A DNA stretch of 64,000 nucleotides. It comes from Saccostrea cucullata (taxonomy: Eukaryota). The notes beneath the pieces were generated by a model. That model was not told the DNA's origin. It did not search any database and was given only the letters and a program-made list of their open reading frames with translations. Position 1 is the first letter of the stretch, and each line of letters opens with the position of its first letter. The position numbers were made by a program, and so were the translations under genes. Positions 2,813 through 12,549 of this stretch are shown here, piece after piece. The stretch lies in NCBI RefSeq assembly GCF_032062105.1, contig NW_026929349.1:62001-126000 (forward strand). The letters are read 5' to 3'.

Positions 2813-5753
2813 TTTGGTTACGAACACCAACGGGGGATAACTCTACCTGTAAACATGACATTTTCACTCGCGTAGGCTACTTGTTTTCTCCAGTCACTTT
2901 CACTCTCTTTACAATCTTTTCTACATTGCTTTGAATTTTAGGATTTTAAACATTTTTTCCCTTGTGCAATTTGTGCGAATTAATTAAACCTAATAGAACC
3001 TTGTCCTCCCTTACGGTGCAATACCAAAAGTGCAGTTTCCTAGCTTAAAAAATACCCAAAATTGTAGGTTTCAATATCATAAAATTGAGAAATATAATTG
3101 AACGGACCCAATTATGTTCTCTAAATAATATATTCACCATGTCGATCATTCATCATGAATGATCATTTACCAAGCCAAGGTACTGTAGCGGAAAAAGTTG
3201 CTGAAACGGGAATAGAAACAAGAGTTATTCCCCTTTAACCATACACAGAGCAATAAATAGGCCTATGCCTTTGATTTATTATTTTTATTTCTTGATTTAA
3301 TTTACTCAAAGGAAAGAATGGTCTGTTTAGGGTGTAAAATAACTACTAGTATTTTGCAAGAAATTATCTGGTATGTAAAGGAATCACAATAACCCATTGT
3401 GCGATTTTATCTAATCTGTATATTGAATGATACTGGACTTTCTTATGTCTTACTAACTTGCTGAGCAATAAATGTACAAGGAAACAAGTTTGTATACACT
3501 GTACGATAAGTTAAAACTAAACTTTCTTTGGTACGTCTCGCAAAGAAGGTCAATGGTCAGGGTCAAGTGCACTTTTAAAAATTTTTCGAAAAATTTGAAA
3601 AATGTGCAAAACATAAAATCCCTATCTTTGACAGTTCTCGAGATACAAGATGTGACAGACGAACAACTAGACAGACAGACAGGTAAACTGATCCCTTAGT
3701 GCCACTCTGCTCTGCAGGTGACACAAAAATATCGCTAGCTGAGAGAGTCTCTACTTTATTTTGATATATGAACTGGGAAAGAGGGTAATATATAGTCAAT
3801 TGTCAGATATTAGACTTTTATATAAGACAATTATGCATAAGGTGAGCCTAGCTCTTTGTATATGATAGTATAGTGTCATATACAACTTTTTTTTTAAATT
3901 GAAAATGCATTTTTTTAGAGGACACTAGTACACTGTCGCCTCTCATTTAAGGGTACATCGTAGGGTGATATGGATGTTAATTTAAAAAGAAATTAATTGA
4001 AATCATATTTACCCAAGGATACTTATCAAGTTTGGGTGAAATTGGTCCAGTAGTAAGGTAGAGGGGAGGATGAAAGTGTGAAGAGTTAACAGACGAAACA
4101 AGACGAACGAAAAACGGTAAACAGATAGACGGATCAGGAAAGCACATTTCACATTTTGGAGCAGTCAAAAAAGGAAAGGGACTGTTCAAAATAAAGCCAA
4201 CAAGAAATGATACAAACAAAATTTTATTTGATCAATATTTTGCTCGTTTTAAAATTGACATGTCCTACTTTTCTTTGGGGGTTCATCACTCGGGGACCGG
4301 AAACAATAAAGATGTACTATAGACAATAAAATTTTATCACCACCAGGGTTAATAGTATTTAAAAGTATTACTGCAAAAACTAATGTTTTTTTCAGAATAT
4401 CGAAATGTCATTTACCACAGAAGTTGCAAAGTTATTTAAATAATAAAATATATCTATATATCGGGAATGATAAAGAATGATGATATTCCTTATGCTGTGT
4501 TTTATGTAACCTTTTTCCAATAAAGATAGAAGATGATGAAATTGAACCTGCGACCAAGTGAAGTGCTAGAGCATCTTATTAGCATTTAATCTGGTTAGAC
4601 ACAACTATTTGTCTTCATTAATAGCAATGTTATTGAATTTGGCATGACGAAGGCGTTTGTGCTACAAAGATAAATGTATCTTGTGATTTTCTTGGTACAT
4701 ATGATACCTAAGTTTCTAGAACTCAATCAATATTTTAACCATTTTGTTTTCTAATACAAGATCTAGAATTGAACTGAAAGAAAATTGGTTAATCATTTAC
4801 TTTTGTCATCTGAGTCTCCCAGACTGAAGGGAGTTATAGAAGATGAATCTTCTTTTTTTTTTATTGTTTGAAACTTTCGATTGTAAACATATTGGATGCT
4901 GAAGGCGCTTCCATGTAAACTGAGTTGAAGATCTTGAGAAAAAAAATACTGTAAGATTTTTCTTCTACAATTCAATTAATTAAAACCGTGTACCCGCATC
5001 ATATCTGGCTTCATCGGAAGCTATGATTTTAAAACACAACTTAAAATTAAATTATCAAAAAAAAAAAAACAATTCCGCTTTAATATTATATGTCAAATAT
5101 ATCATATATCAAAAATATGCATAAGTACAAACTGTATATTGCAAACGTATGTTCGTGTATTGCATGAATTTACTTCATAATTTATTGAATATCAGAATCG
5201 TTTGGCTAACTTTTATCTATGAAATATACCATTCAGTTTTTAAGAAGTTAAATTAAATCTAAAAAAAAAAAATTCATTTTTTTTCCTACAGTGAAATTTA
5301 AGTTATATTTACTATGTATATACTTGTATATATAATTTCATCAGCGGATGGACATGAAGTAGTGTCGAGTAGATCGACTTACACAAATGTGGAGCATTAT
5401 AATAAACAAAAAATAATCACCCTCGCAGTGATAATCAATGGAGATTGTACAATACCGGAAGTGGACAAGGTGGTCAAGTGTTCGGACAGAGAGAAAAAAT
5501 ATTGAATTTGTGGTTCTGTAGAGAGTCCCAGGGGTTCTGTGAGTTTATTGTATCTTAGCATTAAGACTTTGTTTTCAGCTGAACCTATTGATATTACTCA
5601 TAAGAGGTTTTATGAAACTCGTGAACTGAATTGAAATTCGGCTTTGTTTTTCACGCTTCGCTGCACCACTGGTATGACTTGTGTATGTGACCAGTCCGGT
5701 CTGATCTATATATAAACACTGTGGTTGGTAAACTGTGTCTGTGTTTTTTTTAC

Positions 5754-6947
5754 ATGGATAACGATTCGAACACTAAACCTGACAAGTGTGATAACAAACG
5801 TAGGCGATCAGACATGAGTTCATTAGGCACGGATTCAGAACTATCTCCTAAACGATTGAATGATCATAATTCAAGTCCAATAGCACCTTCAAATAGACCA
5901 AATAGTGCAATTAGTGAACTCCAGGGTGTCCCTAAACATAATGTCAATAAAGATAAGAGTGAAGAGACAGTGCACACTCCAGGAAGAGGGACAAATAATC
6001 AACAGAATGGTCAAGGTATGCCCCAATATACTCCTACACGTGCATCTGTTCCTGCCCAACAGCGGATGCCACAATATCCATCCTATCCCTCTTCACCACC
6101 AGGCTTTCCCATGGGTGCATTTCCTGCATCTCCGCCCATAGATTACCAGATAATGAGTCAAGCTCCACCCTGGGCACAGGTTATGGTGAGACAGGTCAGT
6201 GACATTAAGATGAGAATGCAGAAACTAGATCAAATTGAACACGCAGTATTTGACACTCGAAATGCTCTAAAACATATGGAAAAATCTGTACTTGATCTCA
6301 CAGACAGAGTCAGCGTATTAGAAAATAAATCCAAAAAGATCGAAGACTGTTATTCTTCTCAAAAATCACTAGAGAAATCAATGACCAAAATAAAAAATAA
6401 TGCATCAAACCAAACAGAGATTATAACAAACCTACAAAACGAATTTGAGAAACTAAAATCTGAGAACGATAAATTAGCAGGCGACAATGCCAAAATCCAA
6501 GATGAACTTTTGAACATGAAATGTAATGCCATGAAGGATAATCTGCTTTTTTTCAACATTGAAGAAACAGAATTCGAAAACTGCCGACTACTTATCCAAA
6601 ATATTTGTAAAAACAACCTGGGAGTTGGAGATGTTGGAATGATGCAGCTTCAAAGCGCCCACCGAATTGGGAAACCGAGTGAATCAAGACCCCGTCCAAT
6701 TCTGGTGAAATTTAAGAACTTTCACGATAGAGAGGTCATTCGAAAATCCAGCTACAAGCTTAAGGAGACCAATTACAGCATAGGGGAGCAATTGCCACGG
6801 GAGTTTCGCGATCGACGCAAACTTCTTCTTCCACAATACAAGCAGGCCAAAGAAAACAATCAGAAAGCACACTTTGTTAAAGACAAATTGATCGTTGATG
6901 GGAAATTAGTAGCCCCACGTGAAACCTGCGTTGATGACGACGAATAG
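5754..6947 (+). CDS. LINE ORF1 protein, L1-type (low-complexity N-terminus, coiled coil, RRM, CTD), 397 aa from first ATG
   Basis: Heptad-rich coiled-coil segment, then DNLLFFNIEE and AHRIGKP...RPRPILVKF motifs typical of L1-like ORF1; ends TAG 6945-6947. Confidence 0.85.
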   Translation: MDNDSNTKPDKCDNKRRRSDMSSLGTDSELSPKRLNDHNSSPIAPSNRPNSAISELQGVPKHNVNKDKSEETVHTPGRGTNNQQNGQGMPQYTPTRASVPAQQRMPQYPSYPSSPPGFPMGAFPASPPIDYQIMSQAPPWAQVMVRQVSDIKMRMQKLDQIEHAVFDTRNALKHMEKSVLDLTDRVSVLENKSKKIEDCYSSQKSLEKSMTKIKNNASNQTEIITNLQNEFEKLKSENDKLAGDNAKIQDELLNMKCNAMKDNLLFFNIEETEFENCRLLIQNICKNNLGVGDVGMMQLQSAHRIGKPSESRPRPILVKFKNFHDREVIRKSSYKLKETNYSIGEQLPREFRDRRKLLLPQYKQAKENNQKAHFVKDKLIVDGKLVAPRETCVDDDE

Positions 6948-9900
6948 GGGTCACAGGGGGGTGATATCAAATGCCGAATATGGAACGTAAATGGCGGACT
7001 GGAAAATAAACTAAGTGACAAAAAATTTCATTCTTGCCTATTTGATTACGATATTTGTATACTTCTTGAATGCTGGATAACGGAACACTCCAATATATCT
7101 CTTAGTGGTTATTGTGTTCACGCATATCACAGAAAAAAACGTGTCAGAAATCGCACACAGGGTGAAGGAATAGTTGTACTAGTCAAGGACTCGCTTGATC
7201 AATTTATTAAAATAAATGAAATATTTTATGACACTATTGTTTGGATAAAAATAGATAAAGTCATTTGTTGGGATAAGAAAGATTTGTACATTGGGGCAGT
7301 TTATATACCACCCATTGATTCAAAATTTCATGATATTTACAATTGTGACTTGTTTACTACTCTTGACGAATGTATTACAAAATATACAGAAATGGGCAAT
7401 GTTATAATTACTGGCGATTTCAATGCAAGAACTGGTTCATTATTAGATTATATTGAAAGCGATACCCTACACTCCGAAATTAATTATCATATCTCAGAAG
7501 TGATGACTTATATACCTGATATTGAACTCAATCCAAGATCAACAATGGATAATAAAATAAATACATTTGGTAGAAGGCTTATTAGCATATGTAAATCTTC
7601 AAATATTCGCATAGTTAACGGACGACATCCGTCCGATCCAGACGGAAACTATACCTATTGTGGCCCAAATGGGCGATCTGTCGTTGATCTAGTTTTAACA
7701 AATTCATTCAACAATATATCGAATTTCAAGGTTTGTAATTTAACCGAATTCTCAGATCATGCACCAATCAATTTTTCATTTCCGAGCATCTTAGGGTTTC
7801 AAAAACAGACAAACAATTCTAAAATTTCAAACCGTCTAACTTTCCAAAATTCTACCACAGTGAGATGGCAAGAACAATCCCAAATTCAAATGAGACGAGA
7901 TCTTATAAACAACTTAGACGCTCTATATTCTTGTGTTGAAGATGAATTCGATGTCAACCAAATTGTCGATAACTTCAGTGAAAAATTAAGCAGTGTATTA
8001 GGGAAGTATTGTACAAAGAGTAGCAATTACTCGTGTCCAAAAGACAGAAATGCAGAGGATAAACCTTGGTTCAACCACAAATGCAAAGTCTTATACAATC
8101 AATATATATCTGCTTTAGAAGAATATAACAAGTTTCATAGTAAAATAAATTACAATAAGCTTACTAAAACAAAAGGTGAATACAAAAAACTTCAAAAGAA
8201 ACTTAAAAATCAATACAAAAGACAACAAGGTGATATGGTGCAACAACTGAAGAAAAATAACCCTAAAGAATTCTTTAAACATTTTAGCAAACGAAAGACA
8301 TCAAACTCCAAAGTTACCTTATCAGAATTTTTTGAACACTTTCGGAACCTTGCTAATGATTCAGCGACTACGTACATTTCGATTGCAAATTATATGGACA
8401 CCGATAGCCCTGTATTTGAGCTCTTGGACACTGAAATTACCTCAAAAGAGGTTGAAACCTGTATACGCAGACTTAAAACAAACAAAAGCGCGGGAAATGA
8501 TAATTTAATCAACGAATACTTTTCCGAGTTCAGTGACATACTTCTTCCTATTTTAAAGAGCCTTTTTAACAAAGTATTTAATTCCGGTATATTTCCTTCT
8601 TCGTGGTCGAAAGCAACTATTATTCCAATATATAAAAAAGGAAAAACGGATGACCCCGGAAACTATAGAGGCATCAGCATCACAAGCAGTCTGGGAAAAC
8701 TTTTTACTTCAATCCTTAACGAAAGAATAATGAAATGGAATATCTCAGAAAATATTATAACTGATGCACAATTGGGATTTCAGGCTGGGCGTTCAACTAC
8801 TGACGCGATATTTGCTCTTCAAAGTTTAATATCACAAAAGTTGAATAATAAACAACGTTTATATTGCTGTTTTATCGACTATAAAAAGGCATTTGATACA
8901 ATCAACCGGGAAAAATTATGGTATATATTGATCAAATTGGGAATCACCGGAAAATTCCTTGAATTATCCGATGCTCTATGTTGATGTACGCGCCTGTGTC
9001 AAAAATGCAGGAGAGATATCCGAAAATGTAAATACCGGGTTGTTGCAGGGGGAAGTACTATCACCGATATTATTCAATATGTACGTTAACGACTTGGAAA
9101 ATCATTTCATAAACGATAAATGCCCAAGTGTAGAATTAAGAGAACTAAATCTTTTTGTTTTAATGTTCGCAGATGACACAGTAATATTCGCTAACACGCC
9201 AGAAGAGTTACAGAACTTGCTTGATGCTTTACAAGGATACGTATCATCATGGAATTTGACCGTGAACACCGCAAAAACCAAAGTTTTAGTATTCAGGAAA
9301 GGGGGGTGCGTTAATTTTTCATGGACGTACAATAATGAAGTTTTAGAAATTGTCAATTCTTTTAATTACCTTGGATTATGTTTAAACTACAACGGTAAAT
9401 TTAATGTTACGCAAAAGAAATTAGCTGAACAAGGTCAAAAAGCTCTGTTTGGTCTAAACCGTAATATTCAGAAATTTGAATTTAACGCCGAAACCCGCTG
9501 TCAGCTATTTGATACATATGTTGGCAGCATTTTATCGTATGGTAGCGAAATCTGGGGTTTTCATAAATCTCCAGAAATTGAAAGACTGCATTTATCCTTC
9601 TGTAAAAATACTCTTGGTGTTAAGCGCAATGCATGTACTTACATGATTTATAGAGAATTGGGACGATATCCACTTATTATTCAAAGAAAACTAAGAATCA
9701 TAAAGTTCTGGTGTAAATTATTAAAAACAGAAAACTGCATTTTAAAATCGTCATACGAGTACCTGCGACATGATGCAGAGAATGGGCCGGGAACAAGCAC
9801 AAGTATAAATTGGGCGCGTGAAGTAAAGCTTGAATTATTTAGGTTGGGTCAGGGAGAATTTTGGATTAATCAACAAGTAATAAACTCTGCTAATTTCATG

Positions 9901-10371
9901 CATATATATAAAAACAGACTACTAGATATACATCTCCAAGAATGCAATGCATTTATGGATAATTCGTCAAAATGTTTTTTATATAAGCACATTGTCCAAC
10001 CTGACTTCTGTAAAATGCAACCTTATTTAACAAAACCTTTACAAAGTAATTTAAAAAAGCATATTTCCCGCATAAGACTTTCATCGCACTATTTAAACAT
10101 AGAATGCGGAAGGTACCAAGGCAAAAGCAGAAATGATAGAATATGCGATGTTTGTGATAGTCATCAAATAGAAGACGAATTTCATTTCATTTTCCAATGT
10201 CCTAGATATCTAAATCTAAGAAAAAAATATATAAATGAGTATTATTACAAATCACCAAGTACATTTAAATTAATCCAATTATTAAGTACAAACCGCATAT
10301 CTACTTTGGTTGGTCTAGGGAAATATATTCAACATGCTCTAACATTACGTAACGAATATTTATCAGGTTGA
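6948..10371 (+). pseudogene. LINE ORF2 (AP endonuclease, reverse transcriptase, C-terminal CCHC) with one frameshift region near 8960
   Basis: APE motifs IWNVNG (TGG at 6981), LLECW, YIPP, GDFNAR, SDH; RT motifs YRGIS, FIDYKKAFD, QGEVLSP, FADD, YLG; C-terminal CDVC...EDEFH....C. The frame switches between ORFs 7284-8984 and 8959-10371. Confidence 0.92.
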
Positions 10372-10747
10372 CTTACATGTAAGTTCTCTATATTTATGTC
10401 TGTAATCTGTATATCAAAATAGCATGGTTGTATATTGTACTCTATCTTTGAATAATACTGTACTGCTAATTTCAAATTCATTATAATTGTATCATATAAA
10501 TGATGATTGGAACTGTGGGACTGAGGAACACTTGACCTGGGGTTTTACCCCCCAGTTTAGACTCTTTGAGAGTCGATTGTATCATATGTTGTATGTATAT
10601 TTGTCATTTTGTAAACTGATGGGCTGTATTGCCCAAAGTTGTATCCTGAATAAACTTATACAACATATTTTGTGGAAGTAGTCAAAACTGTGTCAAGATT
10701 ACTGTCGGACGGATGGAAAGACAGACGAATGCTGGAAATAGACAATC

Positions 10748-11547
10748 TATGAGGCGCATTGATGGTATTTACTGATAAAAAGTGATATCACTTATTTGAA
10801 TAGGTGATATCACATATTCACTTGGTGTTATCTCCTATTCAAATATGTGATATCACTTATTCAAATTATTTATGACATAACAACTGCTCCAAAGACTATA
10901 GGGTCCCTAAGTCTTATTAACTTTCACCTCGTTTTATAACTCATCGTTTTTGGAGAGAATGGATTACAGCTTCGCAATGCATTTAGTTTTAAGCACCCCG
11001 GTAGAACTTGTAGTTTGTTTTGCTTATGGATTATATTTTAAAAATTTACACTTATCTATCATGCATATTAGAAGAAAAATCGTGAAAAATTCTGGCATAA
11101 ATGCTCCATTCAGAAAGTGCTCCAATTCACATTTAAAACTGAAAAGAGAAAATGTATGCTACTCTGTTACCCCAGCTGGGAAAAATTTATAAAATTTAAG
11201 TAACTAAACTTTATAGGATTTCAGAACATGGGGTATTTAAAAATTCTTGGACTAAAAAATAGATGAACACTGGGCAGTCCGAATTTTCTTGGTTCCAATG
11301 GAAATCTATTTAGATAGTGTTGAGGAAGGGAGGATTCATTATTTATCGTCGTAAGAAATGCAAATAGGTGATGTGTTGTCACATATTCGAATTGGTGATA
11401 TTACTCATTCAAATTGAATAGGTAATACATGTATCACCTATTCAGCACGAATACTAGTAGGTGATATCACCTATTCGAATAAGTCAAATCATCTATTTGA
11501 ATATATCTGACACAAAATGGCAATCAATACCAAAATGGTACCTCAAT
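10748..11547. mobile_element. Degenerate non-autonomous DNA transposon with internal palindromic ~20-bp repeats (AATAGGTGATATCACCTATT)
   Basis: Imperfect TIRs TATGAGGCGCATTGATGGTATT and AATACCAAAATGGTACCTCAAT; repeat clusters at 10780-10865 and 11360-11500; splits a GACGGA/GACAGA...GATCAATAAAGCTCAGTTGAGC element end. Confidence 0.55.
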
Positions 11548-12117: not shown

Positions 12118-12333
12118 TTGTCAATGCGTAAACGTTAATGATTCGCAGATGATGACACTAGTCAACAGGGGTTGTTTGCTCGTCCAAATCACATGGTCTC
12201 ATCTTTGGAATTTTCAGGGGGTCCATGTTTTCTGCCCTGTTCACAGATTCGTATTGTTTTGAAATAAAGTTAAAAGTGGCTATGTGTTGTAAATAGCGAG
12301 GCCACGCTCCAACTAGCACAAGCTAGTGGGACA

Positions 12334-12404
12334 ACCCTTTAGCGCAGTCGGTAGAGCGTTGGATTTTAAATCTGAGGGTTGTAGCTTCGAGCCATAGTGT
12401 GGAC
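12334..12404 (+). pseudogene. tRNA-Lys(UUU)-like sequence (Pol III A/B boxes) inside LTR-B; not a functional tRNA
   Basis: TAGCGCAGTCGGTAGAGC A-box/D-arm, GGATTTTAAATCTGAGGGT resembling the tRNA-Lys(UUU) anticodon arm, degenerate B-box GCTTCGAGCC; acceptor stem broken. Confidence 0.65.
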
Positions 12405-12471
12405 ACCCCCTAGCTAATCAGTCATATTGGCGCCCAACGTGGGGCGTCAAATGTTACGAGCGGGGAAAAAT

Positions 12472-12549
12472 GTCGGCAGGACTGGGACTCGAACTCGGGA
12501 CCTCCCGCCAACCATGCGGGTGCTCTAACCACTGAGCTACCGGGCCGAC
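12472..12549 (-). pseudogene. tRNA-like sequence (Pol III A/B boxes) inside LTR-A
   Basis: Minus strand reads GTCGGCCCGGTAGCTCAGTGGTTAGAGCACCCGCATGGTTGGCGGGAGGTCCCGAGTTCGAGTCCCAGTCCTGCCGAC: perfect D and anticodon stems, B-box GTTCGAGTCC, mismatched T stem, atypical anticodon loop. Confidence 0.7.

Follow-up and report, generated by a model that had tools for sequence, protein, structure and literature searches.

The 64,000-nucleotide stretch of the Saccostrea cucullata genome analyzed here (RefSeq assembly GCF_032062105.1, contig NW_026929349.1, positions 62,001 to 126,000; hereafter the window) carries on its forward strand a long interspersed nuclear element (LINE) that, judged by its reverse transcriptase (RT), is a member of RTE-X, and whose two open reading frames (ORFs) lie in one frame, separated by a single TAG. 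The best reading of this arrangement, held here with a probability of roughly 0.6, is that of a UAG-split element in which a minority of ribosomes read through to a fusion of ~1540 aa, stimulated by a helix between the junction and the RNA's 3′ end ~3.6 kb away. Most ribosomes would stop at the UAG and release the ORF1 protein, while the minority that continue would make the ORF1–ORF2 fusion with its endonuclease and RT, helped by pairing of a segment 8–9 nt past the stop with the RNA 3′ end. The fusion would be the active ORF2p and would presumably use the shared coiled coil to co-assemble with ORF1p, and the enzyme would be made only from RNAs with an intact 3′ end. Readthrough is judged likely because both ORFs share one frame with a single UAG between them, ORF2 almost never has a start codon of its own, and the sequence past the stop has its complement at the RNA's far end; comparison among families strongly supports the feature.

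The junction between ORF1 and ORF2

In the window copy, ORF1 (5754..6944) runs into the TAG at 6945..6947, the predicted readthrough codon, and the frame of ORF2 (6948..10371) reopens straight past it at 6948, reading GSQGGDIKCRIWNVNG. The endonuclease motifs begin 12 codons past the stop, and the first in-frame Met of ORF2 is residue 149, at 7392, downstream of WNVNG, LLECW, and YIPP. The original prediction, made from this copy alone, had described one frame split by a single TAG, a first in-frame ATG too late for the endonuclease motifs, and an ORF2 frame open as far as a frameshift near 8960; the reading frames bear out all three, and relatives extend the first to the whole clade. The frame breaks after 678 codons from 6948, with small deletions near 8960–9025. 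Given that reads and one contig of other copies hold extra letters at 8960, 8972, 9023, and 9025, this break is a defect of the window copy only.

The same TAG-GGG is kept by the close copies L002 (99%), L003 (94%), and L004, and also by families with only 28–53% ORF1 identity. When the genome was searched at protein level for the C-terminus of ORF1, 150 scored matches came back, 110 of which were examined (L012–L121, some of them perhaps allelic duplicates); the endonuclease start was located with a hidden Markov model and the ORF2 frame was then walked upstream, so that no stop was presupposed. An endonuclease start was present in 96 of the 110 loci, which were counted, and missing from the other 14. 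The first upstream stop in the ORF2 frame is TAG in 89 of the 96, TGA in 4, and TAA in 3, with TAG-G in 79; ORF1 shares the frame of ORF2 at 78 loci, uses a different one at 16, and is absent from 2, the exceptions looking mostly like decayed copies of families that are otherwise in frame. When loci are clustered at 70% amino-acid identity and one copy is taken from each of the resulting 26 families, the junction stop is TAG in every one; the terminal stop of ORF2 in the same families is TAA in 14, TGA in 8, TAG in 3, and unclear in 1.

The stop is followed by an 8-nt spacer (6948..6955) that opens with G (+4) and then a purine (+5), each kept in 25 of 26 families, while +13..+15 are purines in all 26. 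Because these three positions are always purines and the Gly codons that fall there are always GGR (16 of 16, compared with 42% GGR in ORF2), the constraint acts on nucleotides. An MLV-like (murine leukemia virus) context that had been noted upstream of the stop is not conserved, there being no signal at −15..−1; the conservation lies 3′ of the stop. Frame, stop identity, and G/purine context, like the lack of an AUG, are directly observed, and the junction is a real, clade-wide feature. The notion of a single-ORF element in which this copy alone has acquired a nonsense TAG, which the decay of the window copy elsewhere (the frameshift near 8960) and a CAG at this codon in L064, from another family, might suggest, is refuted by the counts across loci and families, and by the copies of the L064 family that cover the codon, 9 of 12 with TAG and 1 with CAG.

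Two candidates for a naturally fused subfamily were rejected. In L064 (G000:C3848), CAG joins ORF1 to ORF2 and is private to that one copy; in L097 (G000:C18944), a frame of 1176 aa results from a private 1.3-kb internal deletion that removes the junction.

The ORF1 tails (18–97 aa) and the linkers from the stop to the endonuclease (16 different lengths, 12–50 codons) vary widely, and all are in frame. ATG is found in none of 544 in-frame linker codons, as against 27 of 1038 off-frame codons (25 families, the one with a frameshifted linker being skipped), and the first Met of ORF2, reached in 21 of 25 families, lies at residue 41–248. Neither a sense codon in the consensus of the family or clade nor, in the families of this genome, an in-frame ATG ahead of the endonuclease motif was found, which removes two objections foreseen for the original prediction.

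These linkers bear on the idea that ribosomes terminate at the UAG and restart in frame without an AUG, by stop-carry-on or L1-like reinitiation, to make a separate ORF2 protein, with the helix holding the ribosome. Passages of PMC5972666 and PMC5009743 describe mammalian L1 ORF2 as thought to use AUG-independent reinitiation and the coupling in silkworm SART1 as requiring downstream structure, and a few relatives of the window element do have a Met in the linker; however, scanning reinitiation would neither keep ORF1 and ORF2 in frame over 16 linker lengths nor account for a constant UAG followed by G at +4, and inspection of the linkers by eye showed no conserved start-like codon, so that a restart is decidedly unlikely. 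According to the same passages, L1 and SART1 resemble the window element in their bicistronic LINE RNA and L1-like ORF1 and differ in having an ORF2 AUG served by termination–reinitiation, across a 63-nt spacer in L1 and at an overlapping stop–start in SART1 (PMC5972666, PMC5009743); no AUG of this type stands at or near the ORF2 start in the 544 linker codons.

The junction recurs in a metagenome scan, in which 80 loci were kept, 34 of them with an endonuclease start, 2 of which run off their contig, leaving 32. ORF1 lies in the same frame in 15 of the 32, at 11 TAG-G, 2 TAA-GGG (L212, L215), and 2 TGA-CGG (L230, L234) junctions; 7 more have TAG-G and 1 has TAG-C without an ORF1 profile match, 2 have ORF1 in another frame, and 7 have no such junction. 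In an RT tree of 54 of 58 rows (midpoint root, no labelled references, the window copy left out owing to its frameshift), TAG-G occupies most branches, and two small supported groups consist of the TAA pair and of the TGA pair, L230 and L234 being long-branch relatives. L177, L182, L187, and L191, which have no junction, form an RT subgroup with support; a Met lies upstream of the endonuclease in three of them, and they are possibly single-ORF or AUG-initiated derivatives. Among published bivalve RTE-X consensus sequences, compared over the first ~400 letters of each (PMC10294476), in-frame TAG-G was seen by eye ahead of the endonuclease motif in the starts of S.grandis_24, S.constricta_60, and P.maximus_101, and S.grandis_37 starts right at it.

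A gene model of Mytilus galloprovincialis (P0026) joins ORF1 to mid-endonuclease and skips the junction; this splice across the stop was likely forced on the annotation by the in-frame stop and is an artefact in that case. A genuine 3′ splice acceptor at TAG/G, with ORF2 translated from spliced RNA, is very improbable, although TAG-G fits the acceptor consensus and purine-rich sequence comes next. No pyrimidine tract lies upstream of the stop in the family comparison, the TAA-GGG and TGA-CGG relatives stay in frame without an AG in register, and ORF1 tails of widely differing length always meet the TAG in frame. No splice joints appear in RNA reads or contigs, at low depth: raw reads from three runs number 76, 35, and 79 across 5.5 kb, and only one run covers the junction, at a depth of ~1. 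Four contigs from the three runs extend over the stop without a splice, and none lists a change at 6946, which is weak evidence since rare variants are lost from contigs and the contigs may derive from DNA.

Complementarity to the RNA 3′ end

The spacer leads directly into GGGGGGTGA (+12..+20; 6956..6964), the proximal arm of the predicted helix, whose partner, the distal arm TTACCCCCC, lies ~3.6 kb downstream in the 3′ untranslated region (UTR), at 10545..10553. Most copies of the family have C at 10546, giving nine Watson–Crick pairs, and the window copy has one G-U. Pairing was assessed on 40 extended loci plus the earlier ones, the terminal region being taken as 60 nt before the ORF2 stop to AATAAA, ~6% of the length. 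The best duplex of +10..+25 falls in this region in 15 of 26 families, compared with 2, 2, 4, and 2 of 26 for control segments at −40, −20, +30, and +46, 7 of 52 for shuffled segments, and 11 of 52 for segments of other families. Cognate 3′ ends bind at −15.1 kcal/mol and non-cognate ones at −12.3 (permutation p 1e-5), 15 of 26 families beat at least 57 of 60 shuffles in 3′-end binding, and in a sliding scan the pairing signal peaks at +10..+21.

The start of the proximal arm is fixed at 8–9 nt after the stop, while the distal arm floats from −40 to +340 around the ORF2 stop. The arms covary between families, reading GGGGGUGA/UCACCCCC in the window family and GGAGAAUG/CAUUCUCC, GAAGAAUG/CAUUCUUC, GAGAGUGA/UCACUCUC, or GGAGGG/CCCUCC in others. 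With the segment left unchanged, the test was replicated on 18 metagenome elements that have both junction and 3′ end (5 others lack the 3′ end): 9 succeeded, including one TAA and one TGA-CGG element, and cognate binding was −14.7 versus −10.9 (p 2e-5). Structure from ~8 nt after the stop is thus predicted as complementarity beginning at +12/+13 in about half of the families, with covariation. The family-specific complementarity is an observation; from it we infer that the helix would form in cells and promote readthrough.

Among individual elements, the sequence of L230 from +12 onward can form 9+4 bp with the 3′ UTR of that element, which suggests that the long-range helix persists through a change of stop context. 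In the subclade L136–L161, the distal arm lies inside the last ORF2 codons, and ORF2 ends in VCPP, VGSPG, VTPPG, or similar, a terminal peptide that may be dictated by RNA pairing. An apparent relocation of the partner in F24 was dropped, the odd base being private to that copy.

A local hairpin at 6912..6962, with the stop UAG in one arm, had been noted. It folds as described (−23.7 kcal/mol, z −3.45, 2/200 shuffles), and it overlaps and competes with the proximal arm. Its conservation is another matter: for −45..+25 only 2 of 26 families have z < −2, and for −60..+33 none does; over five windows around or after the stop, z < −2 is reached in 0–2 of 26 families. Since local folding is mostly no better than shuffled across families, the hairpin is family-specific and was rejected as a clade signal. 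Programmed readthrough to a ~1540-aa fusion, as originally proposed, survives as the best reading, with the stop clade-wide, no ATG before the motif, and the fusion itself a prediction, while the local hairpin and the MLV-like upstream context drop out as its signals.

The hairpin bears equally on RNA editing. In hepatitis delta virus, A-to-I editing turns UAG into a tryptophan codon, and UAG is the preferred ADAR triplet. Editing of this stop through a duplex around it is most doubtful: the UAG does sit in a hairpin arm in the window family, but the hairpin is unconserved (2 of 26 families), TAA relatives would require two edits, and the stop-crossing contigs in X1, X2, and X3 list no change at 6946, although contigs drop rare variants. 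The existence of TAA and TGA relatives and the lack of both a pyrimidine tract and a conserved duplex therefore disfavor splicing and editing alike.

In the window family, the helix appears in the predicted dimer once only the sequence from +12 onward is supplied, that up to +11 being withheld as it would be by a ribosome on the stop; a ribosome-gated switch is for this reason possible but speculative. The distal arm itself lies within a local 3′ UTR hairpin at ~10537–10555 (GGGG-loop-CCCC), followed by GACTC (10560–10574), an arrangement kept in the sister family F02 (3′ UTR of L124/L125). By analogy with tombusvirus RIV, the distal arm may switch between this local fold and the long-range helix.

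Several points weigh against helix-stimulated readthrough. The +10..+25 segment was chosen after the first pairing result, and the metagenome test alone is out of sample; the best-partner test failed in 11 of the 26 families and in half of the metagenome elements (9 of 18); several of the predicted helices are short (6–9 bp) or contain a mismatch; and the p-values overstate independence because the families are related. No conserved local stem-loop follows the stop, mean z being ~0 for +4..+63, +4..+100, and +12..+80 in the 26 families, unlike the SL-PRTE of tombusviruses or the MLV pseudoknot. In the window family, each arm can also be drawn into a local hairpin that competes with the helix, and the dimer of minimum free energy lacks it when the upstream sequence is free. 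The stop-free linkers are partly an effect of family selection. An in-frame Met precedes the catalytic Asn in L176, L201, L230, and L234 (4 of 22 metagenome elements with TAG-G, TAA-GGG, or TGA-CGG) and also in the published consensus P.maximus_101, and the RT relatives L177, L182, L187, L191, L207, L214, and L241 have no junction.

It is also conceivable, if rather unlikely, that the local UAG-GR context alone gives readthrough, and that the helix serves escape from nonsense-mediated decay (NMD) or the handover of the 3′ end to the new RT, that is, cis preference. The 3.7 kb of RNA behind the ORF1 stop suits a role in NMD, and a poly(A) tail folded near a stop suppresses NMD in human cells (according to part of PMC2689704), a further point against a stimulatory helix; the presence of the helix in UAA and UGA relatives too suits readthrough by context alone. 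On the other side, the proximal arm stands at a fixed 8–9 nt past the stop, the spacing of known readthrough stimulators (8-nt spacer, in a passage of PMC3542737), and NMD escape would presumably need no such exact spacing.

Known systems and significance

Given the conserved complementarity between +12..+21 and the 3′ end, the closest analogue is the long-distance readthrough of tombusviruses, not the local pseudoknot of MLV. Passages of PMC3542737 and PMC3234231 list UGA-CGG as a type II readthrough context and UAG-GGR as the type III context of Tombusviridae, with long-distance pairing; a UAG followed by G or a purine-rich octamer and an in-frame ORF without a start, by which type III is defined there (PMC3542737), are both found here, and the predicted helix past a spacer of 8–9 nt would fit the type III layout as well. 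In the Tombusviridae member CIRV (carnation Italian ringspot virus), readthrough requires a pairing with the 3′ end across ~3.5 kb, and a dual-luciferase construct failed, as stated in part of PMC3234231. The PRTE–DRTE system of this virus and RTE-X have in common UAG-GGR and a polymerase as the readthrough extension (passages of PMC3234231 and PMC3542737), together with short pairing just 3′ of the stop with a 3′ end ~3.5 kb off and alternative local 3′-end folds (PMC3234231). In the CIRV parts described, the proximal element is the bulge of a local stem-loop, whereas in RTE-X none is conserved and the helix, predicted only, starts right after the spacer. The animal retrotransposon is unrelated to Tombusviridae by descent and would work alike without being a member. 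The odds are about even that the clade obtains its RT solely by readthrough, as part of the fusion, that a 3.5-kb helix with the element's own 3′ end licenses this, and that the arrangement is convergent with tombusviruses.

The readthrough product of MLV is cleaved by a protease; in contrast, a Pfam search found no protease domain in the proteins of the window element. MLV gag-pol otherwise shares UAG-G, an 8-nt spacer before a G-rich stem, and the fusion of an RNA-binding ORF to RT, but its signal, in the passages of PMC3542737 that cover it, is a compact local pseudoknot, whereas the second strand in RTE-X lies kilobases away. No such compact pseudoknot is indicated in RTE-X by local folding (z ~0 in 26 families, with a folder that is not pseudoknot-capable). 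In Paramecium tetraurelia, the non-LTR (long terminal repeat) Group 3 elements likewise have both ORFs in one frame, and readthrough was proposed from their consensus (Guerin et al. 2017, PMC5405496); they are a separate ciliate clade, readthrough is a proposal only, and the relevant part of that paper describes no signal or long-range pairing.

A literature search that lay outside Repbase Reports and subscription journals, where a curator note may exist, turned up no account of readthrough at an RTE-X junction, nor of any LINE with a long-range helix. The word 'readthrough' does not occur in the main text of PMC10294476, and the portion of that paper dealing with C.gigas_78_LINE describes neither the junction nor long-range pairing. 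RTE-X elements, the Paramecium Group 3 proposal, and Tombusviridae long-distance readthrough are thus already known, and the RTE-X junction and its candidate helix appear to be new.

Two long-standing questions about LINEs are by what route ORF2 is translated and by what means ORF2p locates the RNA that encodes it. The putative RTE-X signal is precise and mutable, consisting of UAG-GR, an 8-nt spacer, and a ~9-bp long-range helix with natural compensatory variants, so that both questions become testable with one reporter. If the proposal is true, the element has a built-in check by which enzyme comes only from full-length RNAs, and the nascent RT would emerge next to the 3′ end that it has to copy, which would give cis preference a structural basis; a retroviral gag-pol-like strategy would be operating in a non-LTR element, and long-distance control of readthrough would extend beyond plant viruses. 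For annotation, RTE-X ORF2 called from the first ATG loses the N-terminus of the endonuclease, and gene models splice across the stop, as in P0026.

The element and its neighborhood

The near full-length copy spans 5454..10661, its 5′ end placed by alignment with copy L122 (97% identity across 5.2 kb) and its 3′ end, after the AATAAA at 10649..10654, judged from the 3′ ends of 30 copies. AATAAA is followed in relatives by short tandem-repeat tails, and copies of the family to which the window element belongs have a short or unclear tail. The 3′ ends of the 26 families nearly all consist of a small hairpin, AATAAA, and then a family-specific tail of 3–7 nt tandem repeats. RTE-X elements typically have an upstream ORF1, a 3′ AATAAA with a short tandem-repeat tail, and no LTR, and the upstream ORF1, AATAAA-bearing 3′ end, and lack of an LTR are all seen in the window element. 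The RT of L122 differs from that of C.gigas_78_LINE at ~39 of ~229 positions (~83% identical, counted by eye), and the latter is classed as RTE/RTE-X in the part of Martelossi et al. 2023 concerned (PMC10294476).

ORF1 (397 aa, from the ATG at 5754 within an open frame at 5691–6947) has a disordered N-terminus, a coiled coil, and an L1-like region of RNA recognition motif and C-terminal domain (RRM/CTD). It is probably L1-like, since its family profile matches human LINE-1 ORF1p structures with E-values of 7.5e-5 (2yko), 3.4e-4 (2ldy), and up to 1e-3, among many generic coiled-coil matches; a Pfam search of ORF1 gave coiled-coil matches only, and phmmer with the single ORF1 sequence matched no LINE structure. 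ORF2, without its own ATG ahead of the endonuclease, ends at the TGA at 10369–10371 and encodes an APE endonuclease and RT, as given by matches to PF03372 (E 3e-9), PF14529 (E 1.5e-8), and PF00078, as well as a C-terminal zinc finger.

Immediately beyond the LINE on its 3′ side, a GTGATATCAC-like word recurs in clusters of short repeats at 10750–10870 and 11350–11500, which probably constitute a separate small repeat element. Farther on, 12290–12500 holds sequence that resembles a tRNA or a short interspersed nuclear element, with a palindromic stretch near 12428–12447.

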